DNA from: Patescibacteria group bacterium
GTDB lineage: Bacteria; Patescibacteriota; Minisyncoccia; Phycocordibacterales; UBA918
Reading direction: 5' to 3'
DNA: 64,000 nt
Assembly: GCA_038065355.1 (NCBI GenBank)
Contig: JBBTRC010000007.1
Coordinates: forward strand, 42,333 to 106,332
The translations under genes and the position numbers were made by a program. Under the pieces are notes generated by a model, which worked only from the letters and a program-made list of their open reading frames with translations, did not search any database and had not been told where the DNA came from. Shown one piece after another: positions 5,526 through 46,444 of the stretch. Each line of letters opens with the position of its first letter. Within the stretch, counting starts at the first letter, position 1.

Positions 5526-7031
5526 TCACACAATTTTTTTGCGAGTGAGGTGTTCGGTGTAGACACTTTCTTTACGCAGAGAGTAAGAAAGTAGGTACGA
5601 GGTGAACGCGGCAACGATGACGGCGGGCACGATTAGGCCTTCGCCGGTGATTTCAAACATGATAAATAGTGCCGTAAATGGTGCGTGTGTAATGCCAGCA
5701 AAGACCGCGGCCATACCAACCAAGGCAAAGGTAGTGATACTATCAGCGGTACCAAAACCAAATGACCCGAGCGTAAGCGCAAAACTATTTCCGAGCAAGG
5801 TGCCGATGAGGAGCGCGGGAGCGAAGACACCACCTGATCCGCCTGAACCAAGCGTGATGCCGGTCGCGAACATTTTTGCAAAGAGTAACAGCACCATAAA
5901 TAGAAACGGCAGGGAGGATAGTGACAGCAGAGAACTCATGAGCGGGTACGCAGTTGGTTCGTGAATGTAGGGAACGTAGAGTCCGATGAGACCAATCAGC
6001 AGGCCACCGATAGTCGGAGGAATGACGTGAGGCACACGCCAGTGGTGAAACAGGAGCGCCGATCGGTGCAAGATAAAACCAAATAGCAGTGAGATACCGG
6101 CCGCGACGATGCCAAGGACGAGACTAAGGAGTAGGGTTGTGAGGGTGGTGTCGATTTCGTGAGGGAGAGTGAACCGAAGTCCGGGGTAGCCAAGCATACG
6201 CTTGGTGGCCTCGGCCGAGGTAAAGGCGGCGATGATGAGTACCACCAGACTGGTGCGGTCAATTCGTTTTAAGATAAGTTCGGTACTGAATAAGATACCG
6301 GCGAGCGGCGCGCCAAAGGTACCGGCGATGCCCGCCGCCGCACCCGCTCCTAAAAGGAGGCGGGTGCGGCTCTCATCTTGCTTAAATAATTGCCCAATCG
6401 CCGAACCAATCGCCGATCCGATCTGCACGGTCGGCCCTTCGCGTCCGGCCGAACCGCCCGAACCAAGCGTGATGGCGGTGGTGAGGATTTTAATCGGCGC
6501 GATCAGGGCGCGTATTTTGCTGTGTCGGAAGGCGACCGCTTTCATCACTTCTGGCACACCCTCACCCTCGGCCTCGGTGAGTTTTATAAAGGTAAAAATC
6601 AGGCCGACGAGGAAGCCGCCGGCGGTGGGAATAAGCACGCGTTTCCAGTCGGGCAGGGAGGCGAGGTTGCTCGCAAAATCGGCGTCACTCGGAATCTGAA
6701 AAAATATCCAGGTGCTGAACTCAATAAGGAGGTGGAATATGGTCGCACCTATAGCGGCGACGATGCCAGTTGCGACCGCCAGTAGCAAAAGGCTTACGAT
6801 TCCGTGCCTGCTCCAAGTGGTAAATTGACCCATGCAGATACATTGTAGTACACCAATTTGGCGTCCGTTACAGAAAGCTGGTACAGCTCTTGCTCTAATC
6901 ATTACACGTGATACTATCGCCGTAGAAGTTAGAAAGGATATCACGATGAACCCTTTGACCCTTGATCCGCTGCCGACCACGGATGCGGAGTGGGAGGCGA
7001 CTGGGTTTTTTAGATTCAATTCCGTCGACAT
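5526..7031 (-). CDS. ClC family voltage-gated chloride channel / H+-Cl- antiporter
   Basis: GSGGSAGREGPTVQIGSAIG (GREGP selectivity motif), GxFAP motif and many TM helices. The true start is probably internal (e.g. the Met near 6902 or 6833), because the ORF maximum overlaps the divergent hydrolase gene. Confidence 0.75.
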   Translation of the reverse strand: MSTELNLKNPVASHSASVVGSGSRVKGFIVISFLTSTAIVSRVMIRARAVPAFCNGRQIGVLQCICMGQFTTWSRHGIVSLLLLAVATGIVAAIGATIFHLLIEFSTWIFFQIPSDADFASNLASLPDWKRVLIPTAGGFLVGLIFTFIKLTEAEGEGVPEVMKAVAFRHSKIRALIAPIKILTTAITLGSGGSAGREGPTVQIGSAIGSAIGQLFKQDESRTRLLLGAGAAAGIAGTFGAPLAGILFSTELILKRIDRTSLVVLIIAAFTSAEATKRMLGYPGLRFTLPHEIDTTLTTLLLSLVLGIVAAGISLLFGFILHRSALLFHHWRVPHVIPPTIGGLLIGLIGLYVPYIHEPTAYPLMSSLLSLSSLPFLFMVLLLFAKMFATGITLGSGGSGGVFAPALLIGTLLGNSFALTLGSFGFGTADSITTFALVGMAAVFAGITHAPFTALFIMFEITGEGLIVPAVIVAAFTSYLLSYSLRKESVYTEHLTRKKIV

Positions 7032-8462: not shown

Positions 8463-8831
8463 ATGACGTTTCCAACCATTATCTATAAATACAATGGTAT
8501 CTACAGTGGCGAGCAATTGGCAACGCTCACCGATCAAAAACTAGTTACGTTAGAAAAATTCATCAACGACGGAGTGATGGCCACTTGCGAAGTGGAGTTT
8601 GAGAAAGTGACCGCACAACAGCATGGCCAAATCTACCGCGTCGAAGCAAATCTTACCTTGGACGGCACCTTGTATCGGGCGGAAGCGGTGGAAGAAAGTT
8701 TCGAGAAAGCGATAGACGAAGTGCGGAATGAGCTTGATAAAGAATTACGACGGGCGAAAGACAAACAGACCTCGCTCTTAAAGCGAACTGGTCGGAAGAT
8801 CAAAGAGCAACTGCTCGGTTGGAGAAAGTAA
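8463..8831 (+). CDS. hpf: Ribosome hibernation promoting factor / RaiA (YfiA family)
   Basis: MTFPTIIYKYNGIYSGEQLATLTDQKLVTLEKFIN...YRVEANLTLDGTLYRAEAVEESFEKAIDEV shows the typical HPF beta-alpha-beta-beta-beta-alpha layout and conserved residues. Confidence 0.75.
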   Translation: MTFPTIIYKYNGIYSGEQLATLTDQKLVTLEKFINDGVMATCEVEFEKVTAQQHGQIYRVEANLTLDGTLYRAEAVEESFEKAIDEVRNELDKELRRAKDKQTSLLKRTGRKIKEQLLGWRK

Positions 8832-33654: not shown

Positions 33655-35376
33655 ATGCGGCGGGCTCACTTAATACTCCGGATCCGACTGGTATCTGCTG
33701 GCGTTTTACTTTTGGCGCTCGTACTGCTCGCGCGTTTGTATCAAATTCAGATTGTACAGAGCGCCGAATACCACGCACGCGCCGAACGCCAGTATGTGCA
33801 TACAAAGAGCGATTTGTTTTCGCGCGGGTCGATTTACTTTAAAACCCGTGACGGCGAGCATCTATCTGCGGCGGCGGTGCAGTCAGGATTTGTACTGGCG
33901 GCAAATCCCACCCACGTGAATGACAAAGAAGCGTTTTGCACCGCGCTCGCTGATTACATTCAAAACACTCATGAATGGTGTGTAGTCAAAATGTCACAAG
34001 AAGACCGTACCTATGTAGAGCTCGAACAACGTGTGTCAAAGGAAACTGCCGCCACTCTCGAAGAGCTCGTCCCGACTGGTGTATTGCTTTACAAAAATCA
34101 GTGGCGGTACTACCCAGGCGGGTCGGTTGCCGCCCGGACTGTCGGCTTTGTCGGTTATAGTAGCGACGATGGAAATGAGCTGCGTGGTAAGTACGGCCTT
34201 GAACGCCAGTATGACGACGTACTCTACCGTAGCCCGGAGGTGCTCTCGGTCAATTTTTTTGCTGAATTATTTAGCAATGTCGGCGAATTGGTGACTGGCA
34301 AAAACACCGCTCGTTCTGGCGACATCGTTACCACCCTTGAGCCATCTGTCTCGCGGATGCTCGACACGGTGTTGATAGACACCAATGACTTGTACCACAG
34401 CGCGCTGACCGGCGCGGTCATTATGAACCCTAAAACAGGAGCCATCTACGCCATGAACGCAGTGCCCGGGTTTGATTTAAATGATCGAGCGGAGGCGACT
34501 ATTGAGCAATTTAGAAATCCTTTGGTTGAAGACGTGTACGAGTTTGGATCAACCATCAAAGCTCTCACTATGGCCGCTGGATTGGACGCTGGTGCAATTG
34601 CCCCTTACACGACCTACTACGACCCTGGTGAGATCGAACTTGATACCTTTACCATTCGCAACTTCGACGGCCGTGGCCGCGGCACGGTGCCGATGCAAGA
34701 AATTCTTAATCAGTCGCTCAACACCGGTGCGTCATGGATCGTAACGCAAATGGGCAAGCAAAAGTTCCGCGAGTATTTTTTGAATTTTAAACTGGGAAGC
34801 GAAACCGGTATTGACCTCCCGAACGAAGCCTATGGGTTGGTGGACAACCTCCAGTCTCCTCGTGACGTTGAGTATGCGACGGCGTCGTTCGGGCAGGGTA
34901 TCGCGCTCACCCCCATCGCCGCCACCCGCGCATTCGCAGCGCTCGGCAACGGCGGCCACTTGGTGACTCCGCACGTGGCTTCGGGCATCGAGTACAGCGA
35001 CGGCACCTCTAAAGAAATCCGCTACCCAGAAGGAACGCAAGTGCTCAAGCCAGAGACCAGCGAGGAGATCTCTCGCATGTTGAGCGTCGTCGTAGACGAA
35101 GCTTTGCGCGGCGGAAAGGTCGCGCTCCCGCACCACACCATCGCCGCGAAGACAGGCACGGCACAAATTCCCGACCCGGTCAATGGCGGCTACTACGAAG
35201 ACAAGTTTCTCCACTCATTTTTCGGCTATTTTCCGGCCTATGACCCAGAGATTATCGTTTTCATGTATACTGTAGAGCCGCAGGGTGTCCAGTACGCGTC
35301 CGAGACGCTGACCGACCCGTTTATGCAGATTGCAAAGTTTTTGATTAACTACTATTCAATTCCGCCTGACCGCTAA
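33655..35376 (+). CDS. ftsI: Penicillin-binding protein (FtsI-type class B transpeptidase)
   Basis: SxxK (GSTIKALT), SxN (NQSLNTG), KTGTA. N-terminal TM. dcw cluster position. Confidence 0.85.
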   Translation: MRRAHLILRIRLVSAGVLLLALVLLARLYQIQIVQSAEYHARAERQYVHTKSDLFSRGSIYFKTRDGEHLSAAAVQSGFVLAANPTHVNDKEAFCTALADYIQNTHEWCVVKMSQEDRTYVELEQRVSKETAATLEELVPTGVLLYKNQWRYYPGGSVAARTVGFVGYSSDDGNELRGKYGLERQYDDVLYRSPEVLSVNFFAELFSNVGELVTGKNTARSGDIVTTLEPSVSRMLDTVLIDTNDLYHSALTGAVIMNPKTGAIYAMNAVPGFDLNDRAEATIEQFRNPLVEDVYEFGSTIKALTMAAGLDAGAIAPYTTYYDPGEIELDTFTIRNFDGRGRGTVPMQEILNQSLNTGASWIVTQMGKQKFREYFLNFKLGSETGIDLPNEAYGLVDNLQSPRDVEYATASFGQGIALTPIAATRAFAALGNGGHLVTPHVASGIEYSDGTSKEIRYPEGTQVLKPETSEEISRMLSVVVDEALRGGKVALPHHTIAAKTGTAQIPDPVNGGYYEDKFLHSFFGYFPAYDPEIIVFMYTVEPQGVQYASETLTDPFMQIAKFLINYYSIPPDR

Positions 35377-35378
35377 CA

Positions 35379-36713
35379 ATGCCTATGAAAACATTCCTTA
35401 AGTCGTTCGTCATTGCCATTTTGACTTTTGAGGCCTCACTTCTTTTAAAACGTCACCATCCGACCATCGTGGCCGTGACCGGCAGTGTGGGGAAAACTTC
35501 CACCAAAGATGCGATTTACGCCGCGGTGAAAGGTTCGGTGTCCGCCCGAAAAAGCCAAAAGAGTTTTAATTCAGAAATCGGCGTGCCGCTCACCGTGCTC
35601 GGCCTCTCAAACGGTTGGAACAATCCGTTTTTGTGGCTGAAAAATATTTTTGACGGTCTTTTCATTGCCTTGTTTGTAAAAGAATACCCGGCGGTACTCA
35701 TTCTTGAAGCCGGTGTCGACCAGCCTGGCGATATGGCAAAACTCACCGCCTGGGTAAAGCCGGATATCGTCGTGCTGACGAGATTGCCGGCCGTGCCGGT
35801 ACATGTGGAGTTCTTCAAGACTCTCGAAGCCATTGTGGCAGAAAAAATGGTGCTCCTATCGGCGCTCAAGCCAAACGGCACTCTGGTGTACAACAACGAC
35901 GATGAAATCATCGCCAAGGAAAAAGACAAGGTGCGTCAGCGACAGGTGGGCTTTGGCCGTTATGCGCCGACCGATTTCACTGCCTCTGCTGATCGGATTG
36001 TGTACCGCCAAAATATCATCCATGGCCTGTCGTTTGTCGTATCACATGTAGAAGAATCGCACACGGTTACCGCGGCGGGGGTGGTGGGGACACAGTCCGT
36101 CTATAATGTCACCGCCGCGCTCGCTGTCGCGGATGTGCTCGGTGTCCCGCTCTCTGCCGCCGTGGCCAACCTCGCCGACCTTCAGACACCAAACGGCCGG
36201 ATGCGAATTATTCCGGGTTTAAAGGGTAGTACGCTTATTGATGACACCTACAATTCTTCACCTGCCGCCGCCGAAGCAGCGCTCTCAACCTTGCGAGAAA
36301 TTTCTCTGGCCAAACGAAAGATAGCGGTGCTTGGCGATATGCTCGAACTTGGTTCTTTTTCCAATGATGCGCATCGAAAACTAGGCGAGCAGGCGGCTGC
36401 GGCCACTGACCTCTTACTCACTGTGGGCATACGAGCGCGAGTTATTGCCGCCGGCGCGCTCGCGGCAGGGCTTCCCGAAGAAAAAATTCTGCAATATGAA
36501 GATGTCGAACGCGCCGGGCGTGAACTTCAGGGCATTTTGCAATCGGGTGACGTCGTACTTATCAAAGCATCACAGAGTATTCGCGCCGAGCGGATTGTCG
36601 AAGAAGTGATGGCGGATCCAGATCACACCGAACAGCTTCTAGTCCGGCAAGAACCCGAGTGGAAAAAGAAGAAAATTACTCTTGCGCCAGCAAAACCTGC
36701 CGAGGTACACTAA
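35379..36713 (+). CDS. murF: Mur ligase, best fit UDP-MurNAc-tripeptide--D-Ala-D-Ala ligase (MurF) with truncated N-terminal domain
   Basis: P-loop VAVTGSVGKTSTKDAI at residue ~35 (MurF normally has it at ~110). Central and C-terminal Mur ligase domains intact. Confidence 0.65.
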   Translation: MPMKTFLKSFVIAILTFEASLLLKRHHPTIVAVTGSVGKTSTKDAIYAAVKGSVSARKSQKSFNSEIGVPLTVLGLSNGWNNPFLWLKNIFDGLFIALFVKEYPAVLILEAGVDQPGDMAKLTAWVKPDIVVLTRLPAVPVHVEFFKTLEAIVAEKMVLLSALKPNGTLVYNNDDEIIAKEKDKVRQRQVGFGRYAPTDFTASADRIVYRQNIIHGLSFVVSHVEESHTVTAAGVVGTQSVYNVTAALAVADVLGVPLSAAVANLADLQTPNGRMRIIPGLKGSTLIDDTYNSSPAAAEAALSTLREISLAKRKIAVLGDMLELGSFSNDAHRKLGEQAAAATDLLLTVGIRARVIAAGALAAGLPEEKILQYEDVERAGRELQGILQSGDVVLIKASQSIRAERIVEEVMADPDHTEQLLVRQEPEWKKKKITLAPAKPAEVH

Positions 36714-36718
36714 TCAAT

Positions 36719-37270
36719 ATGAATTATATGAAAAATATTATTACCACGTTGGTTCTCGCGCTGCTTTTGACTTCAGCTTTTCCACAGCTCTCGTTCGCCC
36801 AGTCCACCTCGTTTCAACCGACCACTGCTCGCGAGATGATCGCCTACCTCATGGGTCAGATTCAGCAACTGCAAAATCTGAAAGCCATGCTGGAGCGGGC
36901 CGGCAATCCAGCGCGCGTAGTGGCACCTTCAGCGGTGAGTTATGTAACCGTAGACACCTTTGATGCTACCGAGGAAACAGACGTGTCGGCGGCACTCAGT
37001 GGGGAGGTACTGCTGTTTGGCGACGCCACCGCGCAGACGTGGTTTGAATATGGCCAAGACGAGGATTTTCTTGACAGCAAAACGTCCAAAAAAAACGCCT
37101 ATACTCCCTACGACCGTGCGCAAAAGGTGATCGTGACGCGCCTCGAGCCAGATGAAAAATATTTCTTTCGAATAGTGGCGCTCACCAACGACGACCAAGT
37201 TCTCTACGGGAGCGTGGCTACCTTTAGAACAGACGAAGACCCGGATGAAGACGATGACGATGATAATTAA
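36719..37270 (+). CDS. Secreted hypothetical protein with beta-rich body and poly-acidic C-terminal tail
   Basis: Signal peptide MNYMKNIITTLVLALLLTSAFPQLSFA. C-terminus ...DEDPDEDDDDDN. Confidence 0.5.
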   Translation: MNYMKNIITTLVLALLLTSAFPQLSFAQSTSFQPTTAREMIAYLMGQIQQLQNLKAMLERAGNPARVVAPSAVSYVTVDTFDATEETDVSAALSGEVLLFGDATAQTWFEYGQDEDFLDSKTSKKNAYTPYDRAQKVIVTRLEPDEKYFFRIVALTNDDQVLYGSVATFRTDEDPDEDDDDDN

Positions 37271-37272
37271 TT

Positions 37273-37743
37273 ATGCGTAACGTACACGATAGCGCCCCAG
37301 ATTTTGCCCTTCAAGATCAAAACGGGTCCGTGCGTACACTCGCCGAGTACAAAGGGAAGTGGCTGCTTATCTATTTTTATCCCAAAGACGATACGCCGGG
37401 ATGCACGACCGAAGCCTGCACCATTGCCGAAGTGTATGACGAATTTAAAGCGCTTGGCGTCGAGGTGATTGGCATAAGCAAAGACTCGCCGCAGTCGCAC
37501 CAGAAATTCGCCGCCAAATACCACTTGCCATTTACGTTGCTTTCCGATGAATCAACCGATACCATCAAAGCCTACGGCGCCTGGCAGAAGAAAACTTTGT
37601 TCGGTCGCACCGCCATGGGCACTAAACGCGTTTCATATTTAATAAATCCCGCCGGAAAAATAGAAAAAGTGTATCCAAAAGTAGATCCAGCGAATCATGC
37701 CCTTGAGATTCTTGAGGACGTTAGAAAAACAAATGATCAGTAA
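37273..37743 (+). CDS. bcp: Thiol peroxidase Bcp (peroxiredoxin)
   Basis: FYPKDDTPGCTTEAC (peroxidatic and resolving Cys), thioredoxin fold. Confidence 0.9.
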   Translation: MRNVHDSAPDFALQDQNGSVRTLAEYKGKWLLIYFYPKDDTPGCTTEACTIAEVYDEFKALGVEVIGISKDSPQSHQKFAAKYHLPFTLLSDESTDTIKAYGAWQKKTLFGRTAMGTKRVSYLINPAGKIEKVYPKVDPANHALEILEDVRKTNDQ

Positions 37744-37776
37744 AAAGCCGCAGTCAAATTGACTTGCGGCTTTTAA
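37744..37776. terminator. Bidirectional hairpin terminator
   Basis: AAAAGCCGCAGTC-AAATT-GACTTGCGGCTTTT with one bulge. Confidence 0.7.
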
Positions 37777-37788
37777 AGGTTTTTGCCC

Positions 37789-38082
37789 TTAGTGACCCTG
37801 GGGCGATAAGGCCTTGCACGGCAGCGTAGTCGCTACCCCCGCCACTGCTGCTTCAATGTACGGTTTTTTGGCCAAAGGGGCAGCCAAGACGATGCCCGAC
37901 TCGTTACTCTCGGTGAGGTAAATTCTAGAGCCGATCTTTGGCACTTCGTAGCCGCACTCCTCTACGAAGTGTTCACGCAGTCGTTGAGTGTAGTTTTCGT
38001 CAGCTCTTTCAAAGAGCCAAAACATGGCCGGCAGAAGCAATAAAACGGCCACTACACATATCAGTTTCACTGTTGAAGACAT
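37789..38082 (-). CDS. Hypothetical small exported protein
   Basis: 97 aa, N-terminal hydrophobic segment VKLICVVAVLLLLPAMFWLF. Lower GC than surroundings. Confidence 0.4.
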   Translation of the reverse strand: MSSTVKLICVVAVLLLLPAMFWLFERADENYTQRLREHFVEECGYEVPKIGSRIYLTESNESGIVLAAPLAKKPYIEAAVAGVATTLPCKALSPQGH

Positions 38083-38232
38083 GCACCCTCCTCCTTGCTG
38101 TTGGGTTTAAAAGAACGTTTGCACGTATAATACTACAAAGTAGTCTAAAAGTCAAGTTTCCTCTATCCAGTTTATTAGTACCCGAAAGTCGATCCAGCGG
38201 CTCGCGCATACGAAAAGGGGCCTTTTAAGGTT

Positions 38233-38568
38233 TTAAACTTCTAACTCAAACTTCCAGTTCATCTTCACTACCGAGATGTTAAACGGAACGGTAATATTGT
38301 TGTGTTGTTTAAATGGAACAATTTGATCTCGTAGCTTAGCGAGTATTCTTTCCATGTCTTGTTCGGAAACTTCAGAAAATGTAGCGTATACATAAATTTC
38401 AATTGGTGCTGCATTTACCGTCACTTGGTTCGGAGACGCAAAAACAGAAACCTCAGCGGGAGTATATCCCGTTGCTTCTGCCGCAAATTTCTGGATGGCG
38501 GCAGCAACTTTTTGTATTTCTTCCTGTGAAAGTTTGCTCTTTTCGTAGTCAATTCTTACTATGGGCAT
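38233..38568 (-). CDS. Hypothetical protein, possibly tautomerase-superfamily-like (Pro1 after Met)
   Basis: MPIVRIDYEKSKLSQEEIQKVAAAIQKF resembles the 4-OT/MIF-like N-terminal beta-alpha-beta. 111 aa. Low-GC islet. Confidence 0.35.
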   Translation of the reverse strand: MPIVRIDYEKSKLSQEEIQKVAAAIQKFAAEATGYTPAEVSVFASPNQVTVNAAPIEIYVYATFSEVSEQDMERILAKLRDQIVPFKQHNNITVPFNISVVKMNWKFELEV

Positions 38569-38707
38569 GAGTTCATTATATCAAATGTTCCAACATTCCA
38601 TTTTGATGACTCAAATCTGCTGCAATAATCGATCTACACGCTACGTTGCTCGATCCCAGCAAGGGTATTGCTACAAATATTTTGGATATGTTGGCGAATT
38701 AAAGTCA

Positions 38708-39160
38708 TCATTCTGCTCGCTTTTTTCTGCCTGCCACGATGACATGCAGGAGGACGAAAAATGAAAAAATTAGCATCATATTGGCAATAAAAAACAAATT
38801 GAACCAAACGGTTGGTTCCAGATGAGCGCCGTGGGTTGGAGGAATGGTTACGCTGAGTGAAGTATCCTGACTAAAATCAGCGAATCCGAGCCGCCACCAA
38901 AAAACCCGATCAGAAAAAAACAAAGCCCAATAAGGTAGCGCGACCGGGACAAAAACACTTGAAAACAGCGAAAACGGAACCCGCGCCGCTTCTGGCAGCC
39001 ACTGTATTACAGCGAGTCCAGGTTTTGAAACTAGAAATATAAACAAAGATACGTACACAAAGTAGCTACCATAAATCACTAATAGCTTGTTCTTCATACT
39101 CCTTAGTATAGCAGGTAGCGGAGAGTCTCCTATAAAAACAGGAATTTGAAATTCATACAC
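38708..39160 (-). CDS. Hypothetical polytopic membrane protein
   Basis: Multiple hydrophobic helices. Start may be the internal MKNKLLV near 39097. Confidence 0.4.
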   Translation of the reverse strand: MYEFQIPVFIGDSPLPAILRSMKNKLLVIYGSYFVYVSLFIFLVSKPGLAVIQWLPEAARVPFSLFSSVFVPVALPYWALFFSDRVFWWRLGFADFSQDTSLSVTIPPTHGAHLEPTVWFNLFFIANMMLIFSFFVLLHVIVAGRKKRAE

Positions 39161-39192
39161 AAAAACAGTCTCGAATGAGACTGTTTTTGTGT
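39157..39192. terminator. Bidirectional terminator, perfect 16-bp palindrome
   Basis: ACACAAAAACAGTCTC-GAAT-GAGACTGTTTTTGTGT, followed by a second hairpin GCTAGTTCG...CGAACTAGC at 39194-39227. Confidence 0.7.
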
Positions 39193-39258
39193 GCTAGTTC
39201 GTTCCTTCTTGAGTGCTCGAACTAGCTCTCTAGTCGGTGAGCGTTCAGCAGATAGAAA

Positions 39259-39780
39259 TTAACGAATATATTGTTGTATAAAGCTTTTTTCAAAACAATT
39301 GGCTGTATTCGACTGGTCCTTCTCGTGCGTTGAGAAAAATATACTAATAACTATAGCTATTACTGCAAATAATAGTGTCCATGAATTAAAAATTGTTTGT
39401 CTTTTTCTATCCAACGTTCGATCAATAATTTCTATATATGCGGAGCCTTCACTAATATTTTTTCCAACAGCAGATTCAAATTGAAAATAACTAGCAATAT
39501 CTTTGGAGTTTTCTGGTAAACCTTTAAACAAAATATCAGGTGTCTCAAGCTTTTGAACAACAACAAAAAAACGTTTCGCTATATCTTCGTATTGACTACT
39601 ATATTTTCTAAGTCTGCTCGAGTAAAGGGGGAAATTAATTCTGACTCCTTGGATGTCAATAAGAAGCTGTTTGAGCTCATTCAGAATTGGGAAAAGCTCT
39701 TGCTGAACGGTATTCAGTAGTCGCTTTGTTCCTTCCGATACTGGTATTTGTTCCATGTTGGTTACTTCTCGTGCTAGCAC
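39259..39780 (-). CDS. Hypothetical protein with C-terminal TM helix, AT-rich
   Basis: 173-aa ORF (~35% GC versus ~53% locally). The maximal ORF begins 4 nt from the tRNA 3' end. Probable start MEQIPV near 39756. Confidence 0.4.
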   Translation of the reverse strand: MLAREVTNMEQIPVSEGTKRLLNTVQQELFPILNELKQLLIDIQGVRINFPLYSSRLRKYSSQYEDIAKRFFVVVQKLETPDILFKGLPENSKDIASYFQFESAVGKNISEGSAYIEIIDRTLDRKRQTIFNSWTLLFAVIAIVISIFFSTHEKDQSNTANCFEKSFIQQYIR

Positions 39781-39784
39781 GAAT

Positions 39785-39859
39785 TGGTGACCCTACCGGG
39801 AATCGAACCCGGGTTTCCAGGATGAGAACCTGGCGTCCTAGCCGCTAGACGATAGGGCC
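39785..39859 (-). tRNA. tRNA-Glu (anticodon CUC)
   Basis: Reverse complement folds as a cloverleaf: acceptor GGCCCTA/TAGGGTC, D-stem GTCT/GGAC, anticodon stem CCAGG/CCTGG with loop TTCTCAT, T-arm CCGGG-TTCGATT-CCCGG, 3' ACCA encoded. Confidence 0.85.
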
Positions 39860-40063
39860 AAATGTTATCCGGGGAAGAGGATATGTTTGGTGGGCGGCGC
39901 TGGCGAAGCCAGGGGCGGCTCCGGTGGAGCCAGTGATGCTGCTGGCTTCGGTAGCCCGGACCATGACCAGACGCTCGGCATCCCCGGCGCCGGCGATATC
40001 TCCCACGCTGGCTAACCCAGCGCCGCTATTTATAGCAAAAAACCACCAAACCGGAAAGGGCAG

Positions 40064-41911
40064 CTAGTTTGTCTTACGGATTGACTCTTTAATGTCAAAA
40101 CGTGGGTTGACCTTTTTGCCAGGATTGAAGATATCGTCGGGGTCGAAGATGTGCTCAGTTTTTTTGAAAATTTCCAACATGTGCGCGCTAAACATCTTGC
40201 TCAAGTGAGGAGTGCGGATAATGCCGTCGTTGTGTTCACCGCAAATGTTGCCGCCAAATTTGATGGCCGTGTTGAAAAAAACGTCGGCCATTTTTTCAAT
40301 CAACGCTGGAGTCGTTTTGTTGGTGAAATCAAGAAGAGGATAGAAGTGGAAGTGGCCATTGCCGCCGTGTCCATGTATGGCCGACTGGACGTTAAATTCT
40401 TTGAAATGACGCTTCACCTGGGCAAAAAACTTGGAAAGATTTTCCGGCGGTACTGTCATGTCCTCCAAGAAAGCGGCCGGTCGCTTTGTCTTGTCCAAAA
40501 GCTTGGATAGAGAAAAGCTGGCGCGGCGCACTTGCCAGAGCATTTCGGCTTCGTACTGATTCTTCACAACCCGCGCCCGGCCGCCTTTCGCGCTGATGCT
40601 TTTGGCGATAGTGACGGCCGGGGTCTTGGTCGTGGTCTCTTCGTCGAGCGTAATGAGGATGGTGAATTCTGGTACTTTGCCGCCGAAGCGGACGTGGTAG
40701 GTGGTATACATTGAGAACATCACCCGGTAGTACTCGGAACGCTTAATGCGGGCTTTGAAGAAGTCGGGATTTTTGAGGGCGAGTTCATAGGTGAGCGAGT
40801 CGAAAATCTCGATGTTGATAGGATTGTGCTCGAGTGCCTTTACAATCACACTGGCGGCATCGGACAGATCAAAAATAGGCACTACAATGAGCGAGGTATT
40901 TTTCTGAATCGGCAGTGCTCGCAAGGTGAGGTGCGTGATGATGCCGATAGTGCCTTGGCTACCGGAGAAAAGACGGGTGAGGTCAAACACTCCTTTGCCT
41001 TTCTTGAAAGCCTCAACGCCATTGGGCAAGACGTGCCAGAGCGAATACCCGGAAGAATTTTTTGGTGTCGGCGGCTGGCTCTTCTTTATTTCCACTTCGT
41101 TTTTGTTGATGAGTTCAAAAATCTCCCGTGCAATCCGCGCGTGTTCATGATCTTGTTTGATAAGGAGTTTAAATTCGCGGTAGGTAATGGGCTTGATGGT
41201 GTAGGTGTTGCCGTCTTTGAGCACCACATCAAGCGACTCAACCCAGTCGGCACAGTGGCCATAACGAAGCGAGTCCGGACCGGCGGCATTGTTGGCAATG
41301 GAGCCACCGATACTGCAGATATCTTTTGAAGAGGTATAAGGCGGGAGGTAGGCTTGGTGAGCCTTGAGTTTCTTTTCAACATCGCGCCACATGGCCCCGG
41401 GTTCGCAGGTGAAAATAATCTTTCCTTTCTTCTCAATCACTTCGCCGATGTGAGTGAGGTGCGCACAGACGTCGATCACAATTGAGTCGGTGAGTGAGCC
41501 ACCCGAAAGCCCAGTGCCGGCTGCCCGGGGGGTGAGTGAAAGGGAAGAGAAGCGTTTGGTTTCGCGCGCAATCACCCTGGTGGCGATTTCTACGTCGTGC
41601 CTGTTCTTAGGTTGGATCACCACTTGCGGGCGAATGCTAAAAATACTCTCGTCGGTACTGTAGGTGTCAAGTAATTTTTTGTCACTAGAAATGCCGCCGC
41701 GAAAGCCGCTCTCCCGCAGCATTTTTTCTATCAACAAATGACCAAGCGGGTTGCGCTTAAAGCCGTCGGTTACCGAAACGGCTTTCGCGGCGCGTTTTGC
41801 CTCGGCCATTTGTGTCGACGGCGAAATTACTTTTCGCTTGGCGCTTTTGCGCGTTTTTGGCTTCGGTTTAACCACAGTCATTACCTCCGAGGAACTCGTT
41901 TCCATTACCAT
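40064..41911 (-). CDS. FAD-linked oxidase (GlcD / D-lactate dehydrogenase-like) with basic N-terminal extension
   Basis: FAD-binding PCMH region ...TPRAAGTGLSGGSL... and C-terminal HGHGGNGHFHF ... GGNICGEHNDG typical of the FAD-oxidase_C domain. Confidence 0.8.
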   Translation of the reverse strand: MVMETSSSEVMTVVKPKPKTRKSAKRKVISPSTQMAEAKRAAKAVSVTDGFKRNPLGHLLIEKMLRESGFRGGISSDKKLLDTYSTDESIFSIRPQVVIQPKNRHDVEIATRVIARETKRFSSLSLTPRAAGTGLSGGSLTDSIVIDVCAHLTHIGEVIEKKGKIIFTCEPGAMWRDVEKKLKAHQAYLPPYTSSKDICSIGGSIANNAAGPDSLRYGHCADWVESLDVVLKDGNTYTIKPITYREFKLLIKQDHEHARIAREIFELINKNEVEIKKSQPPTPKNSSGYSLWHVLPNGVEAFKKGKGVFDLTRLFSGSQGTIGIITHLTLRALPIQKNTSLIVVPIFDLSDAASVIVKALEHNPINIEIFDSLTYELALKNPDFFKARIKRSEYYRVMFSMYTTYHVRFGGKVPEFTILITLDEETTTKTPAVTIAKSISAKGGRARVVKNQYEAEMLWQVRRASFSLSKLLDKTKRPAAFLEDMTVPPENLSKFFAQVKRHFKEFNVQSAIHGHGGNGHFHFYPLLDFTNKTTPALIEKMADVFFNTAIKFGGNICGEHNDGIIRTPHLSKMFSAHMLEIFKKTEHIFDPDDIFNPGKKVNPRFDIKESIRKTN

Positions 41912-41952
41912 AAGTATAGCAAGACTGGTCTTTTAATGTGCTGGCTTTCCAC

Positions 41953-41990
41953 AAAACAAAAATAGCCGCGCGAAGAAAATCGCGCGGCTT
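41953..41990 (-). terminator. Terminator of 42003..42425 gene (minus strand)
   Basis: AGCCGCGCGA-AGAAAA-TCGCGCGGCT with A-run on the plus side (T-run on minus). Confidence 0.6.
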
Positions 41991-42002
41991 TGAAGTCAGG
42001 TG

Positions 42003-42425
42003 TTAAGCATTCGCGGCAAACGGCAGTGTCAAGACAGGATGACGCTTGATGCCAGCTACCCGCCAGTCTCCGAGTATGTCGAAGCCAAGGAACCTTTCGT
42101 TGGTGAGCGCAGGAAACTCCTCTTTGATTTCGCTCTCAAGCTTATCTGTGTAAAACTCGAGCAGGCAGGCGGAATTTTTCAGCTGTTCCCTAAGCACCCA
42201 TTGCCTGATTGCATTCTTCTCGCCGCGTAGGTTTGTGGCGTCGAAGGCGGCGTCTTTAGCAATCTGTGCACACAGAACCATCAGACACTTCGTGTACGCG
42301 CTTTGGATTGGTCCAAGAATCTCGTGTTTCTTTGGGTCCAAGGGGATTGCGTATGCTTGCACCGTGGGCACACTCGTCTTTTCGTGGGCTTCCTTGTCGA
42401 AAGCCAAAGCTTCGCTTCCACGCAT
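42003..42425 (-). CDS. Hypothetical protein, paralog of 42531..43019 (shared C-terminal EF...DWRVA..K motif)
   Basis: 140 aa. ...EIKEEFPALTNERFLGFDILGDWRVAGIK aligns with ...AIRTEFKLNPEDDFVVLSGWRVALLK of its neighbour. Confidence 0.45.
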   Translation of the reverse strand: MRGSEALAFDKEAHEKTSVPTVQAYAIPLDPKKHEILGPIQSAYTKCLMVLCAQIAKDAAFDATNLRGEKNAIRQWVLREQLKNSACLLEFYTDKLESEIKEEFPALTNERFLGFDILGDWRVAGIKRHPVLTLPFAANA

Positions 42426-42485
42426 TACTGTACTCCCAACAACTCCAATACCATTATAACTCCGTTGTGGGTGACAATCAAAAAG

Positions 42486-42523
42486 GTATAAAAAAGGTCG
42501 CGCGAGCGTAAGCTCGCGCGACC
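42486..42523 (-). terminator. Terminator of 42531..43019 gene (minus strand)
   Basis: 12-bp stem GGTCGCGCGAGC/GCTCGCGCGACC, GTAA loop, A-run on plus. Confidence 0.65.
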
Positions 42524-42530
42524 AACAATT

Positions 42531-43019
42531 TCAACCATTATTCGCGACCAAGACGAGCGAAGGCCGCTTTGTCTCGCTAAGGTCATCTTCCTCGTCATCG
42601 AGTCGAGGCAGAGGCGGTGCTTTCAACAAAGCGACGCGCCAACCAGACAGGACGACAAAATCATCTTCGGGGTTGAGCTTAAACTCTGTTCGAATGGCCT
42701 GTCTGGTAGTTTGCAGAGCGAGTTCAAGTATGTCTCGACGTGCCTTCAGGAGCTGGAGCACTCCCGTAAATTCGCTGGTTCCGCGCATTAGCTTGTTGGC
42801 GCGTGCCAGTATTCTCTTCGTCTCCTCTGTCTGTTCGTGAATAAGCTGACAGAGATTGCGTGACCCAATCGACAATTTTCCGAGCACCTTGTGGCGGACT
42901 GGGTTGTAAGATGCTGCTGAACCTTGGAATCGAGGATTCAATTTTCGTGACTGCACTTCTTTAAGCATCAGGTCGAGCGCTGACGAAACAACTCGTCCGT
43001 TGGTTTGGCACGCGGGCAT
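42531..43019 (-). CDS. Hypothetical protein, paralog of 42003..42425
   Basis: 162 aa. Shares the ...TEF...F..LsGWRVAllK motif. Acidic tail DDEEDDLSE. Confidence 0.45.
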   Translation of the reverse strand: MPACQTNGRVVSSALDLMLKEVQSRKLNPRFQGSAASYNPVRHKVLGKLSIGSRNLCQLIHEQTEETKRILARANKLMRGTSEFTGVLQLLKARRDILELALQTTRQAIRTEFKLNPEDDFVVLSGWRVALLKAPPLPRLDDEEDDLSETKRPSLVLVANNG

Positions 43020-43096
43020 GGTTTTCTCCGTGTAATGTGGAAGGACAAAAGCTGGTGCAATAGTACAATAAAACCATATATTTGTCCATTATCATA

Positions 43097-43123
43097 TAAA
43101 AAACCCGCGCGTCGCCGCGCGGG
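43097..43123 (-). terminator. Terminator of 43147..43584 gene (minus strand)
   Basis: CCCGCGCG-TCGC-CGCGCGGG preceded by AAAAAA on plus. Confidence 0.6.
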
Positions 43124-43146
43124 CTTGAAGTGATGAAGAAAGACCG

Positions 43147-43584
43147 CTAGAGTCCGATCACGACGCCGCGAGGGCCGATGTCGAGTAGATTCATCATGCT
43201 GGCTTTGTCCTTGTCACCTTTGAGTGAAATGGCGATTTTGTTGCCATCGACGAGTAGCATCATTCCATCTTTTCCAAGACGAGCTTGAATAGCAAGATAC
43301 ATTAGGCACTGGGTGTGTTCGACGTAATCCATGAGACAGCTGGCCTCCTTGACTCGGCGGCGGTTTTCACCAACAGTGATTGTTTCGTCTCCTTTGGTTA
43401 GTTGTTTGACTTCGCTAAAAATCTGTAAGACAAGCGAGAAAAGCCGCCGTTCCCGGTCGTTCATCTGGCCGATTATTTGCAGCTGTTCAGCAGCAAGATC
43501 GACACTTTTGATCTCAGGAAACGACGTAGGTGTTTCGAAATCGTTGCCGGTAACTGCATTGGCAAGGCGGTCAAGAAAGTCCAT
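43147..43584 (-). CDS. Hypothetical protein
   Basis: 145-aa ORF with its own terminator. No recognisable domain. Confidence 0.4.
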   Translation of the reverse strand: MDFLDRLANAVTGNDFETPTSFPEIKSVDLAAEQLQIIGQMNDRERRLFSLVLQIFSEVKQLTKGDETITVGENRRRVKEASCLMDYVEHTQCLMYLAIQARLGKDGMMLLVDGNKIAISLKGDKDKASMMNLLDIGPRGVVIGL

Positions 43585-43697
43585 GAAAACCTCCGTTTGG
43601 ACTGGTGGAATCTAGTACATTACAAAGAACAGAACTCATAGTATACAAAAGTAAGTTATTTTGTCAATAAAAATTTCGGTGTGGTATTCTTAGCGGC

Positions 43698-45407
43698 ATG
43701 ACCCAAAGCCAAGCGCTTGATATCCTCAAAACCGGCGCCAATATCTTCCTGACTGGCGAACCGGGCGCCGGCAAGACGCATGTGATCAACCAGTACATCG
43801 CGTGGCTCGAGGCAGCTGGGCTCCACGTCGCGGTGACGGCCTCGACCGGCATCGCCGCCACCCATATCGACGGCATGACCATTCATTCCTGGAGCGGCAT
43901 CGGCATTAAAGACACGCTGTCACCGTACGATCTGGAGTTTATTACGACCAAAGAAACGGTCGTAAAGCGAGTGCGACGCGCGCAGGTCTTAGTGATTGAC
44001 GAAATCTCTATGCTCGACGGGCGCGTGCTCGATATGGTGGATGTAGTATTGCGTACAGTCCGCCAAAAGCCGGAGGCTTTTGGCGGACTGCAGGTGGTAG
44101 TGGTTGGTGACTTCTTCCAGCTACCACCGGTCACAAAGCAAGGCGACGTTATGCGGTATGCCTTTGAGTCGCGGGCATGGGATACACTCAAGCCGCTTAC
44201 GTGCTACATCACCGAGCAGTATCGTCAGGAAGACGAACTTTTGCTCGGGCTACTGGCGTCAATCCGCCGCAATGAAATAGAAGATGATCACTACACACTC
44301 CTACAAGAGCAAACAGAAATTGCCTACGAGCAGATTGAACCAACGCGCTTATATACCCACAACGCCGATGTGGACGCGGTGAACGCCAAAAAACTCGCCG
44401 AGCTACCCGGCGCAGGAAAGATATTTGAAATGCACGGCCGTGGTCGAAAGTCTCTGATCGAAGGGTTGGTAAAAAACTGCCTATCACCCGAACGGCTCAT
44501 ACTAAAAGAAGACGCTATGGTGATGTTTACCAAAAACAATTTTGAAGCCGGCTACGTGAACGGCACGCTTGGGCGCGTGGTGGCTTTTGTGGAAGGTTCG
44601 CCAGTGGTTGAAATCGCTGACGGTACGCGCATTACAGTAGAGACGGAGTCGTGGGAGGTGGTCGAGGATAAGAAAATTCTGGCATCAATTGAGCAACTAC
44701 CGCTTCGCCTCGCCTGGGCGATTACCGTACACAAAAGCCAAGGCATGTCGCTTGACGCCGCTGAAGTTGATCTTTCAAAAGCCTTTGTGTACGGGCAAGG
44801 CTACGTGGCGCTCTCGCGGGTACGTTCGCTCGACGGTCTCAAGGTGCTCGGTATGCATCCGAATGCGCTCCAGGTTGATCCAAAAATTGTTGAACGGGAC
44901 AAAACATTCCGCGGCGATTCAGAAGCGGCAGAGGAGGCTTTTGTCGCCATGGACGAGCGGGAAGTGGCTGACATGCACGAACGGTTTGTGGTAGCCAATG
45001 GCGGAAAACTGCCGAAAGAAGGCGATATTGGGAAGCGGTCGGTGGCCGAACGGGTGCAGGCAGAAAGTACTTTTGCCCACACCAAAAAACTCCTGCTGGA
45101 GAGCAAAGCGGTGGCGCACATTGTACGCTTGCGTTCGCTCACCGAATCAACCGTCTGGGCCCACATTGAAAAGCTTGCCGCTGATGGACAGCTGGCGCTT
45201 GGCGACCTTAAGCATCTTGAGCCAGCCGACATCGACTGGAAGCGTGCGCGCAACGACTTGGACGCGGCCATGATGCAACATGGTACTCTAAAACTCAAAC
45301 CAATTTTTATCGCCTGTGGCGAAAAATATGATTACAACCACGTGCGTCTCGCCCGCACTCAGTTTTTATTAGAAGGCAAACGAGCAAAATCAGAAGATGT
45401 TTTTTGA
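43698..45407 (+). CDS. Pif1/RecD-family (SF1B) DNA helicase with C-terminal winged-HTH-like extension
   Basis: Walker A LTGEPGAGKTHV, motif IVVVGDFFQLPPV, motif ITVHKSQGMSLD. 569 aa. Confidence 0.8.
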   Translation: MTQSQALDILKTGANIFLTGEPGAGKTHVINQYIAWLEAAGLHVAVTASTGIAATHIDGMTIHSWSGIGIKDTLSPYDLEFITTKETVVKRVRRAQVLVIDEISMLDGRVLDMVDVVLRTVRQKPEAFGGLQVVVVGDFFQLPPVTKQGDVMRYAFESRAWDTLKPLTCYITEQYRQEDELLLGLLASIRRNEIEDDHYTLLQEQTEIAYEQIEPTRLYTHNADVDAVNAKKLAELPGAGKIFEMHGRGRKSLIEGLVKNCLSPERLILKEDAMVMFTKNNFEAGYVNGTLGRVVAFVEGSPVVEIADGTRITVETESWEVVEDKKILASIEQLPLRLAWAITVHKSQGMSLDAAEVDLSKAFVYGQGYVALSRVRSLDGLKVLGMHPNALQVDPKIVERDKTFRGDSEAAEEAFVAMDEREVADMHERFVVANGGKLPKEGDIGKRSVAERVQAESTFAHTKKLLLESKAVAHIVRLRSLTESTVWAHIEKLAADGQLALGDLKHLEPADIDWKRARNDLDAAMMQHGTLKLKPIFIACGEKYDYNHVRLARTQFLLEGKRAKSEDVF

Positions 45408-45927
45408 TATGTGGCGCCTTAGAGTAGTGCGCCGCTCTAAGCGGCGACGCACCCGCACTAAAGTTGACGCACACTATCTAGAACACAAAGAAGCGGCGCG
45501 CGAGCTTGTGCTCGCGCGCCTTGCTCACTTCAACCAATACTATGGCTTCTCTTGGAACCGCGTCTCGATCAAAAACCAACGTCGCTCGTGGGGAAGTTGT
45601 TCAGCAAAAAAGAATCTTAATTTTAATTACAAAATCCTCTTCCTGCCGCCTCACTTACAAGATTACATTGTGGTGCACGAGCTTTGTCATCTGATGCACC
45701 TGCACCATCGGCAGGATTTTTGGCACTTAGTGGCCGAGCAAATTCCTGACTACCGAAATTGCAGAAACGAAATAAAAATCATCGACCGGAGCGGCCATCG
45801 CGAGGCCGCCTTCACAGCAGTACTGGCCCGTTATCAATCGTATGCCAAAGAGCCAGCGACGCGACCGACCGGTGCGGCGACCAATTCTCCACGGTCGAGC
45901 GAATTTTCCGCACAAAATGTGGCTTGA
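45397..45927 (+). CDS. DUF45/YgjP-like metal-dependent hydrolase (WLM/M48-like HExxH)
   Basis: YIVVHELCHLMHLHHRQDFWHLVAEQIP matches the DUF45 HExxH...H...FW signature. Confidence 0.65.
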   Translation: MFFDMWRLRVVRRSKRRRTRTKVDAHYLEHKEAARELVLARLAHFNQYYGFSWNRVSIKNQRRSWGSCSAKKNLNFNYKILFLPPHLQDYIVVHELCHLMHLHHRQDFWHLVAEQIPDYRNCRNEIKIIDRSGHREAAFTAVLARYQSYAKEPATRPTGAATNSPRSSEFSAQNVA

Positions 45928-46444
45928 GTTGGTAGTGCTTATATAGACTATTCATAAGTCCCAGATCACCAAAAGAAAACACATCCTTGCGTGCGAGCGA
46001 GAATAGCAAAAACATTTCCGCCGTCCACCGGCCAACGCCGTAGAGCTTGGTGAGCTCGGCAATGACCTCTTCGTCGGTCATATGCACGAAATTCCTTACG
46101 GGAATTTCGTGCCACACCTCCGCATTGTGTTTTAGGTACTGCGTCTTCTTTTCAGACAGTCCACAAGCTTTGAGGGTAGCAAAGTCGGCCGCGAGCACGG
46201 CCTCGGGCGTAAGTTCTTTCAGTAGCGAAACCACTCGCGCTTTTATGGAACGAGCGGCGGCCGTGCTGATCTGTTGGCTGATGATAGAGCTCACAATACT
46301 TCCAAAATACTCGGTTGGTTTTTTTGGTTGCGGGATGGCAATTGGCGCGGTTGCCTCAAGCGAATGCGCGAGCAACCGCGCCATAATCTGGTCGTTTTTC
46401 TTGAAATAGGCGAGAGCGAGAGCCGTATCAACTATTGCAGTCAT
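45812..46444 (-). CDS. HhH-GPD superfamily DNA glycosylase (AlkA / 3-methyladenine glycosylase II-like)
   Basis: HhH LTKLYGVGRWTAEMFLLF followed by the catalytic-Asp region DVFSFGDLGL. C-terminus WSPHRSVASLALW. Confidence 0.75.
   Translation of the reverse strand: MTAIVDTALALAYFKKNDQIMARLLAHSLEATAPIAIPQPKKPTEYFGSIVSSIISQQISTAAARSIKARVVSLLKELTPEAVLAADFATLKACGLSEKKTQYLKHNAEVWHEIPVRNFVHMTDEEVIAELTKLYGVGRWTAEMFLLFSLARKDVFSFGDLGLMNSLYKHYQLKPHFVRKIRSTVENWSPHRSVASLALWHTIDNGPVLL

Follow-up and report, generated by a model that had tools for sequence, protein, structure and literature searches.

An AT-rich gene segment behind tRNA-Glu(CUC) in a groundwater Patescibacteria genome: composite tRNA trailer or decayed island?

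Introduction

Tyrosine-integrase islands at the 3' ends of tRNA genes are an established class of integrative elements. In Escherichia coli, thrU-tyrU-glyT-thrT-tufB is a tRNA operon with a distal protein gene, and the arrangement tyrT-tyrV-rttR/tpr can be seen in the annotation of this species. Here, we analyzed the segment that lies behind the gene of tRNA-Glu(CUC) in a 64-kb stretch of contig JBBTRC010000007.1 (hereafter, the window), which belongs to a Patescibacteria genome from the Hainich groundwater well H41. An earlier note on this DNA had read four small open reading frames (ORFs) of the segment, here called p97, p111, p150, and p165, as one old, decayed island at tRNA-Glu that has lost its integrase. 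On balance, we lean towards the view that the segment is a composite "trailer" of tRNA-Glu(CUC) rather than a single decayed integrase island. In the segment, the tRNA gene is followed on the same strand by p165 (28 nt on), a double hairpin, p150, and p111.

The segment resembles tRNA-linked islands in abutting the 3' end of a tRNA gene, in its low GC content, in its small hypothetical genes, and in a content that varies among relatives. It differs from them in that an integrase and a tRNA-end repeat are both missing from the window, two genes keep their place at the tRNA across genera, and the low GC content follows the gene families in nearly every host of higher GC content. With the tRNA operons of E. 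coli (tufB; tyrT/tpr), the segment shares a protein gene placed a few to about 30 nt behind the tRNA, the lack of room for a promoter between them, and the strong terminator hairpins that follow; however, the genes are unrelated, and co-transcription in the window is only inferred. A literature search on tRNA-linked islands in Patescibacteria returned nothing relevant.

General Features of the Segment

The segment is 100% identical in seven further contig loci assembled from the same H41 samples (ENA assemblies and Logan run assemblies), which excludes a chimera or an assembly artefact. Because of this identity among all Hainich contigs, there is no within-population variation over the segment for tests of selection, and the ORF lengths that differ between the Hainich assemblies reflect gene-calling differences only. 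The GC content of the window has a mean of 0.510 and a standard deviation of 0.036 (500-nt windows), and all of the 500-nt windows with a GC content below 0.43 fall in 37901 to about 39900, the sole dip in 64 kb, with a floor of 0.34 at 39001-39700. The GC content at third codon positions (GC3) is 0.58 ± 0.04 across the 31 long ORFs of the window (minimum 0.49), while p111 (0.36), p150 (0.40), and p165 (0.25) rank below every other plausible gene of the window. The depressed GC content that the earlier note had seen in all four ORFs is thus real and unique for three of them, but not for p97, whose GC contents at the first, second, and third codon positions (0.55/0.42/0.58) are the same as those of the genome. 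The AT-rich block is 38083-39784 and contains three ORFs, and p97 lies outside it.

The anchor of the segment is the tRNA-Glu(CUC) gene (39785-39859, minus strand), which was found by ARAGORN and by Rfam (RF00005, 62 bits), has an encoded CCA, and is the single tRNA that both of them report in the window. Behind it, all on the minus strand, are p165 (39259-39756), p150 (38708-39160, 150 aa), p111 (38233-38568, 111 aa), and p97 (37789-38082, 97 aa), the last of which is convergent with a bcp gene on the plus strand (37273-37743). A bidirectional terminator hairpin lies between bcp and p97 (37744-37776; -19/-18.5 kcal/mol, z-scores -5.3/-5.4), and two adjacent hairpins, with a perfect stem of 16 bp and a stem of 9 bp, lie at 39157-39227 (-38.2 kcal/mol, z-scores -8.7 to -9.1). 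ARAGORN and Rfam, the ORF calls, and the folding therefore agree with the earlier note on the positions of the tRNA gene, the four minus-strand ORFs, and both hairpins. The note had also taken the two hairpins as the bounds of the segment, and although the fold at 37744-37776 is real, the one at 39157-39227 falls inside the AT-rich block, between p165 and p150, where it would be the terminator of a tRNA-p165 transcript. None of the four ORFs had a significant match in the Pfam, NCBIfam, PHROGs, or PADLOC searches. The p150 ORF, for which the NCBI annotation uses the ATG at 39097 and gives 129 aa, is a predicted polytopic membrane ORF with three to four hydrophobic segments, and it returned only self matches among 5.8 billion proteins.

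The hydropathy of p97 shows a helix at the N-terminus (signal or anchor), and the start of its gene follows a strong Shine-Dalgarno site (AAGGAGGAGG); the search of 1.84 billion cluster representatives returned no match for p97 other than itself. Between p97 and p111, on the plus strand, the stretch 38178-38234 is probably a relic of an older bcp 3' end together with its collapsed terminator (compare 37671-37783). Positions 38178-38199 match 37671-37692 in the 3' end of bcp at 19 of 22 nt, a level that was reached by 0 of 300 shuffles, and they read YPKVDPA in frame, with all three mismatches at synonymous third positions. A second collinear match follows, to the sequence past the bcp terminator (GGCYTTT(T)AAGGTTTT). 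The relic coincides with the boundary between DNA of native GC content and AT-rich DNA, separating p97 from the AT-rich genes. This comparison suggests that an earlier bcp 3' end probably once converged on p111, and that a piece of about 485 bp, consisting of a replacement bcp 3' end, the terminator, and p97, may have been inserted into it, leaving the relic behind; p97 would then have arrived separately from the AT-rich genes. If the relic is read correctly, a sister lineage lacking p97 would show bcp ending in ...YPKVDPAARAYEK... and converging directly on p111.

Gene Families Conserved behind the tRNA Gene

The homologues of p111 form 40 clusters with 55-79% identity, almost all of which are exactly 111 aa long. 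In their alignment (A2), the proline at position 2, which becomes Pro1 after removal of the methionine, is conserved in at least 90% of the 40 sequences, and many further positions are near-invariant. The AlphaFold2 (AF2) model of p111 has a predicted local distance difference test (pLDDT) score of 90.8 and the order E-H-E-E-H-E, corresponding to two beta-alpha-beta units. Foldseek matched this model to PDB structures of MIF, D-dopachrome tautomerase, Cg10062/cis-CaaD, MSAD, and fused 4-OT (E-values of about 2e-6), with 215 matches below 1e-3, a probability of 1.0, and template-modelling scores (TM-scores) of 0.6-0.7, and the solved members among the Foldseek matches listed are 8-20% identical to p111 in sequence. 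On the evidence of the model, p111 has a tautomerase-superfamily fold with a catalytic-type Pro1 and represents a divergent subfamily, which supports, at the level of the fold (AF2 and Foldseek), the "tautomerase-like" call of the earlier note. Like members of this superfamily, p111 combines two beta-alpha-beta units in about 111 residues with a near-invariant proline after the initiator methionine. Unlike them, it matches no tautomerase or MIF model of Pfam or NCBIfam at E < 0.1-1, and its other catalytic residues are not assignable; a profile search against the PDB sequences gave nothing below an E-value of 0.39.

In four of seven related genomic contexts, p111 lies just behind tRNA-Glu(CUC) and beside the dcw cluster. 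Related loci are designated here by L and a number. In L016 (GCA_964384895.1; p111 78% identical), the order is MurF, tRNA-Glu(CUC), and, 6 nt later, p111. In L014 (72%), tRNA-Glu(CUC), a DUF2200 gene, and p111 are convergent on the dcw cluster in the same orientation as in the window, and in L045 (GCA_964616425.1; 65%), tRNA-Glu(CUC), 327 nt of non-coding repeats, and p111 are convergent on MurF and dcw. Both MurF and dcw genes are present in L016 and L045, and dcw genes without MurF in L014. The p111 gene of L017 (63%) stands beside the FAD-oxidase/PIF1/YgjP/HhH-GPD block that flanks the tRNA in the window, and those of L019 and L046 occur without a tRNA. From the synteny in L016, L014, and L045, the pair of tRNA-Glu(CUC) and p111 beside dcw appears to be ancestral to several genera, in which the penicillin-binding protein (PBP) is only 46-50% identical to that of the window. 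The ratio of nonsynonymous to synonymous substitution rates (dN/dS) of p111 is 0.06-0.13, and its GC3 is lower than that of the host in six of six relatives (0.33/0.46, 0.48/0.55, 0.31/0.38, 0.46/0.82, 0.21/0.28, and 0.39/0.43, gene/host). An extended -10 box (TGATATAAT; 38575-38583, minus strand), read from the sequence, ends 6 nt before the ATG of p111, and the same spacing of TATAAT is found before p111 in L045; this suggests a separate, nearly leaderless p111 transcript. No relatives of p111 were found on viral contigs.

As a separate observation, in L019, a relative with 58% GC, p111 lies in its own low-GC stretch of about 2.4 kb (L019:7800-10400, 42-47% vs. about 60%), which also holds a Ser-hydrolase, a C39-like peptidase, and a 210-aa ORF and has no tRNA nearby.

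The ORF of p165 is open back to a GTG at 39780 (173 aa), which leaves only 4 nt to the tRNA end at 39785, as the earlier note had stated. However, the alignment with the starts of 24 homologues points to the ATG at 39756, 28 nt from the tRNA, as the most likely true start of a 165-aa protein. The family comprises 26 clusters with 45-80% identity and conserved lengths, and its alignment (A1) contains the invariant motifs KLETPD and EIIDRTLDRK. The AF2 model of p165 (pLDDT 85.5) is all-helical and predicts a three-helix bundle running into a C-terminal membrane anchor, with a single transmembrane segment at residues 122-140. A structural search with this fold returned only generic helical bundles (E > 0.06), and the family profile had no match among the PDB sequences. 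The dN/dS of p165 is about 0.06 against L029, and the values of 0.06-0.17 across the p111 and p165 families indicate strong purifying selection on both.

Among 15 dereplicated contexts of p165, nine have a tRNA on the same strand within 300 nt upstream, and seven of these tRNAs are tRNA-Glu. The gene follows Glu(CUC) in the window, L029, L020, and L030; Glu(UUC) in the L021 group, L025/31, and L034/37; Ser(UGA) in L027; and Trp(CCA) in L039. By a rough estimate, only a few per cent of genes would be expected by chance so near behind a tRNA. The flanks are otherwise wholly different, and no recurrent neighbour of p165, such as an integrase or a toxin partner, was seen among the contexts examined; nor were relatives of p165 found on viral contigs. 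The closest relative found is L029 (PBP 76-77%, MurF 56%, and p165 83% identical), where MurF, two small ORFs, tRNA-Glu(CUC), and p165 follow each other in a block that is inverted relative to the window. The GC3 of p165 is lower than that of the host in nine of nine hosts of higher GC content, e.g., 0.26/0.57 (L029), 0.22/0.45, and 0.19/0.50, and about equal to it in four low-GC hosts. As both families are AT-rich in comparison with their GC-richer hosts, the GC dip seems to be a long-standing property of the genes and not a mark of recent import.

The 28-nt leader between the tRNA and p165 (39757-39784, minus strand; ATTCGTGCTAGCACGAGAAGTAACCAAC) is too short for a promoter of its own and forms a small hairpin (-5.1 kcal/mol, z-score -2.0). 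Sequence comparison places the same leader after the tRNA 3' end, or after its direct repeat, in L029, L030, and L020, with a short motif, CAATTCGTGCTAGCACGAG, common to the window, L029, and L030 and partly present in L020. The gap behind the tRNA on the same strand is 28 nt in the window and 29 nt in L025 (p165 in the window), 6 nt in L016 (p111), and 3 nt in L014 (DUF2200 gene), and genes beginning 3-30 nt behind tRNA-Glu recur in L014, L016, L025, and L027.

Several further features of these junctions were noticed. A short conserved hairpin (TTCGNG-loop-CNCGAG) stands directly after the tRNA end or its repeat and before the p165-family genes in the window (39757-39784), L029, L030, L020, L034, and L021. 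In L030, two changes leave its pairing only as G-U, and such pairing-preserving changes hint at an element acting at the RNA level. The tRNA genes that directly abut the p165 leader (window, L025, and L034) encode CCA, and at the module-interrupted loci compared (L029, L020, L021, and L030), the tRNA has no encoded CCA and the displaced repeat carries it.

Proposed Model and Its Main Alternative

As the earlier note had said, an integrase is missing: no recombinase or integrase occurs within ±10 kb in the precomputed Pfam annotation, in which remnants too short for an ORF were not profile-searched. A direct repeat of the tRNA 3' end, which the earlier note had proposed to look for, is likewise absent from the 64 kb; the repeat search of the window found none, and an 18-mer (at most 3 mismatches) and an 11-mer (at most 1 mismatch) of the tRNA 3' end match only the tRNA itself, with one chance-level match about 12 kb away on the other strand. 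At the same site in relatives, p111 is present at the tRNA in L014, L016, and L045, p165 is present in L029 and absent from L014, L016, and L045, and neither p150 nor p97 occurs outside the window lineage in the protein searches. The slot between the tRNA and p111 is empty in L016 and holds one DUF2200 gene in L014, two structured repeat units in L045, and two genes in the window. This variable content among relatives indicates that the tRNA-Glu flank is a recombination hot spot in the clade, whereas the genes of the window are not delimited as an island. The integration hot spot proposed in the earlier note is thus borne out by the variable slot, but not the acquisition of the four genes as one unit.

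Direct repeats of the tRNA 3' end do occur at the junction in L020, L021, L029, L030, and L039, where they are located between the tRNA and p165. The uninterrupted tRNA/p165 junction of the window is the exact empty-site counterpart of L029, where 213 nt, including a 17-nt duplicate of the tRNA 3' end (ATTCCCCGTAAGGTCAC), have been inserted at this position. Under the classical integration model, a repeat between the tRNA and p165 makes p165 the original flank and the short insert the newcomer.

Taken as a composite trailer, the segment could work as follows. As there is no room for its own promoter, p165 would be transcribed by read-through from the tRNA promoter, and processing of the tRNA would release the p165 mRNA, which would end at the 39227-39157 hairpins. 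The p111 gene would be expressed from its own extended -10 promoter as a nearly leaderless mRNA. The content between the tRNA and p111 would change among relatives via recombination at the tRNA 3' end, with p165 and p150 as the likeliest added pieces, possibly acquired in the common ancestor of the window and L029 or earlier.

Several points weigh against this view. The absence of p165 and p150 from the site in L016, L014, and L045 reads as an insertion in the window lineage, and p165 occurs in wholly different neighbourhoods from genome to genome. In L024, it has a mobile-looking setting, adjoining a resolvase and a methylase between two structured repeat units. The window and L029 are more alike in p165 (synonymous similarity of 0.60 at third positions) than in the flanking genes (0.31-0.41). 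A GC3 that stays low in genes passed on vertically is unusual, and the trailer view does not account for it; repeated transfer from an AT-rich pool would fit it as well. Furthermore, the proposed co-transcription, processing, and promoters are derived from spacing alone, and the putative bcp relic comprises just 22 nt and 16 nt.

A tentative alternative, which we consider possible though rather doubtful, is that the insertion comprised p165 and p150 alone (about 38700-39784, the 1.1 kb richest in AT) and arose by site-specific recombination at the 3' end of tRNA-Glu, between the tRNA and a resident p111, with later loss of the integrase and the distal repeat. The tRNA of L016, 6 nt from p111, and that of L045, with only non-coding repeat units in between, would then resemble the site before insertion, and the orphan p150 and the GC3 of p165, the lowest of the window, are in line with this. 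The occurrence of p165 homologues behind Glu(CUC), Glu(UUC), Ser, and Trp in unrelated contexts also favours it, as do the tRNA 3' end repeats at the junctions of the five relatives named above. However, the position of these repeats, between the tRNA and p165, would make p165 the original flank under the classical model, and no repeat distal to p165 and p150, nor an integrase, is found in the window. Moreover, no neighbour gene recurs with p165, the family is absent from viral contigs, and the closest relative, L029, already has tRNA-Glu followed by p165.

Two other candidate origins were rejected. A phage origin is without support, with no relative of p111 or p165 on viral contigs, and an integron cassette array, suggested by small, promoterless genes on one strand, would need repeated attC-like structures that are missing between the genes.

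Structured Modules behind tRNA Genes in Relatives

Some of the relatives carry a structured module of 128-138 nt behind their tRNA genes. In its closing stem, a direct copy of the local tRNA 3' end pairs with an inverted one, and three hairpins are enclosed by this stem. In five aligned copies, 21 of 37 pairs show compensatory change, and a covariance model built from them (R1) found more copies after tRNA-Tyr in L039 and after tRNA-Pro in L040, as well as two in L024, between which lie a 121-aa gene and a homologue of p165. The modules, which sit behind tRNAs Glu, Trp, Tyr, and Pro in Patescibacteria, are located at L029:3709-3921, L030:3081-3218, L039:4894-5030 and 3922-4047, L045:5696-5823 and 5847-5980 (two tandem units), L024:7348-7463 and 8572-8750, and L040:5044-5188. 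The insert of L029 folds with a z-score of -12. The window itself has no module: R1 matches only the tRNA (15.6 bits), even with filters off, and no degenerate copy was found in the intergenic gaps.

The closest known analogue of the modules of the relatives, though not of the window, is rtT of E. coli, the tyrT-distal 178-bp repeats that correspond to the RttR RNA. At the tyrT/tyrV locus of E. coli K-12, three copies of AATCCTTCCCCCACCACCA are spaced at 178 nt behind tyrV, and each tyrV-distal unit ends in the last 19 nt of tRNA-Tyr and holds an inverted partial copy, GGGGAAGGAT. These units are the rttR/tpr region, which is mentioned in a recent preprint (bioRxiv 10.1101/2024.07.17.603846). 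Similar to rtT, the units of L029, L030, L039, L045, and L024 measure 128-215 nt, lie behind a tRNA, can be tandem, and end in 14-20 nt that repeat the tRNA 3' end, with an inverted copy inside. Unlike rtT, they fold into a closing stem with three hairpins, follow several tRNAs, and, in L024, flank protein genes; the unit of L029, the single one scanned against Rfam, has no Rfam match and no sequence match.

It is conceivable, though unlikely, that the modules are attachment sites of a cassette system targeted to tRNA ends, with p165-type genes as cargo (L024) and the small, promoterless, AT-rich genes on one strand behind tRNA-Glu in the window as an old array that has lost its sites. This idea derives from the stem, in which single-strand folding restores the tRNA end as a duplex; the same rebuilt-duplex logic is known from the attC sites of integrons and the attP site of the CTX phage. 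In a milder version, the modules and the tRNA could serve as punctuation for RNase P and RNase Z, releasing mRNAs with short leaders.

Remaining Readings and Implications

We regard as very unlikely a reading in which the AT-rich block is degenerating or without function, its composition shifting towards AT under the mutational bias of a reduced genome and its ORFs being partly spurious. Although searches of billions of proteins gave no homologue of p150 or p97 and the start of p150 is uncertain (129 or 150 aa), this reading is already refuted for p111 and p165 by their low dN/dS, confident models, and conserved lengths, and it is opposed for p97 by the genome-like GC pattern over codon positions and the strong ribosome-binding site. 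Least credible of all is a single old island of four ORFs at tRNA-Glu that has lost its integrase, which could appeal to the abutment on the tRNA, the low GC content, the small hypothetical genes, and the end of the segment at the 37744-37776 hairpin, but is contradicted by the native composition of p97, the probable bcp relic between p97 and the other three ORFs, the syntenic linkage of p111 to both the tRNA and the dcw cluster that related genera show, and the absence of both a tRNA-end repeat and an integrase. An acquired status is further opposed by p111 keeping both its position and its depressed GC3 in L014, L016, and L045, and by p165 being already placed behind tRNA-Glu, with its low GC3, in L029. 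The observations of the earlier note were therefore largely right, and its interpretation was right about the hot spot and wrong about one acquired, decayed island.

A GC dip beside a tRNA gene is routinely read as a foreign island, and here the relatives show that this would be mostly wrong. In the composite-trailer reading, the AT-rich genes have long resided in the tRNA-Glu flank, with a low GC content that travels with the gene family. This calls for caution when islands are called from composition in Patescibacteria, a group in which nearly all genes lack annotation. In addition, two conserved families of unknown function are defined, namely a tautomerase-fold protein with Pro1 and a membrane-anchored helical protein tied to tRNA 3' flanks, and the relatives provide a pointer to an rtT-like family of structured repeats behind tRNAs in this phylum.

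Other Features of the Region

The arrangement of p183, bcp, and p97 between MurF and p111 is specific to the window lineage. When positions 33655-46444 of the window were compared with L029, L016, L014, and L045, the block of tRNA-Glu and its trailing genes was found in both orientations relative to dcw/MurF, and the region downstream of the dcw cluster was generally plastic.

Finally, a GC-rich stretch (69%) of about 100 nt, at 39905-40018, lies between the FAD-oxidase gene and the tRNA, in the loop of a hairpin formed by GGCGGCGCTGGCG...CCAGCGCCGC, and has no further copy in the window. An assembly from the same population (L008) has the plain hairpin without this stretch, and another (L007) has a run of N there; the stretch is thus a population polymorphism or an assembly difference.

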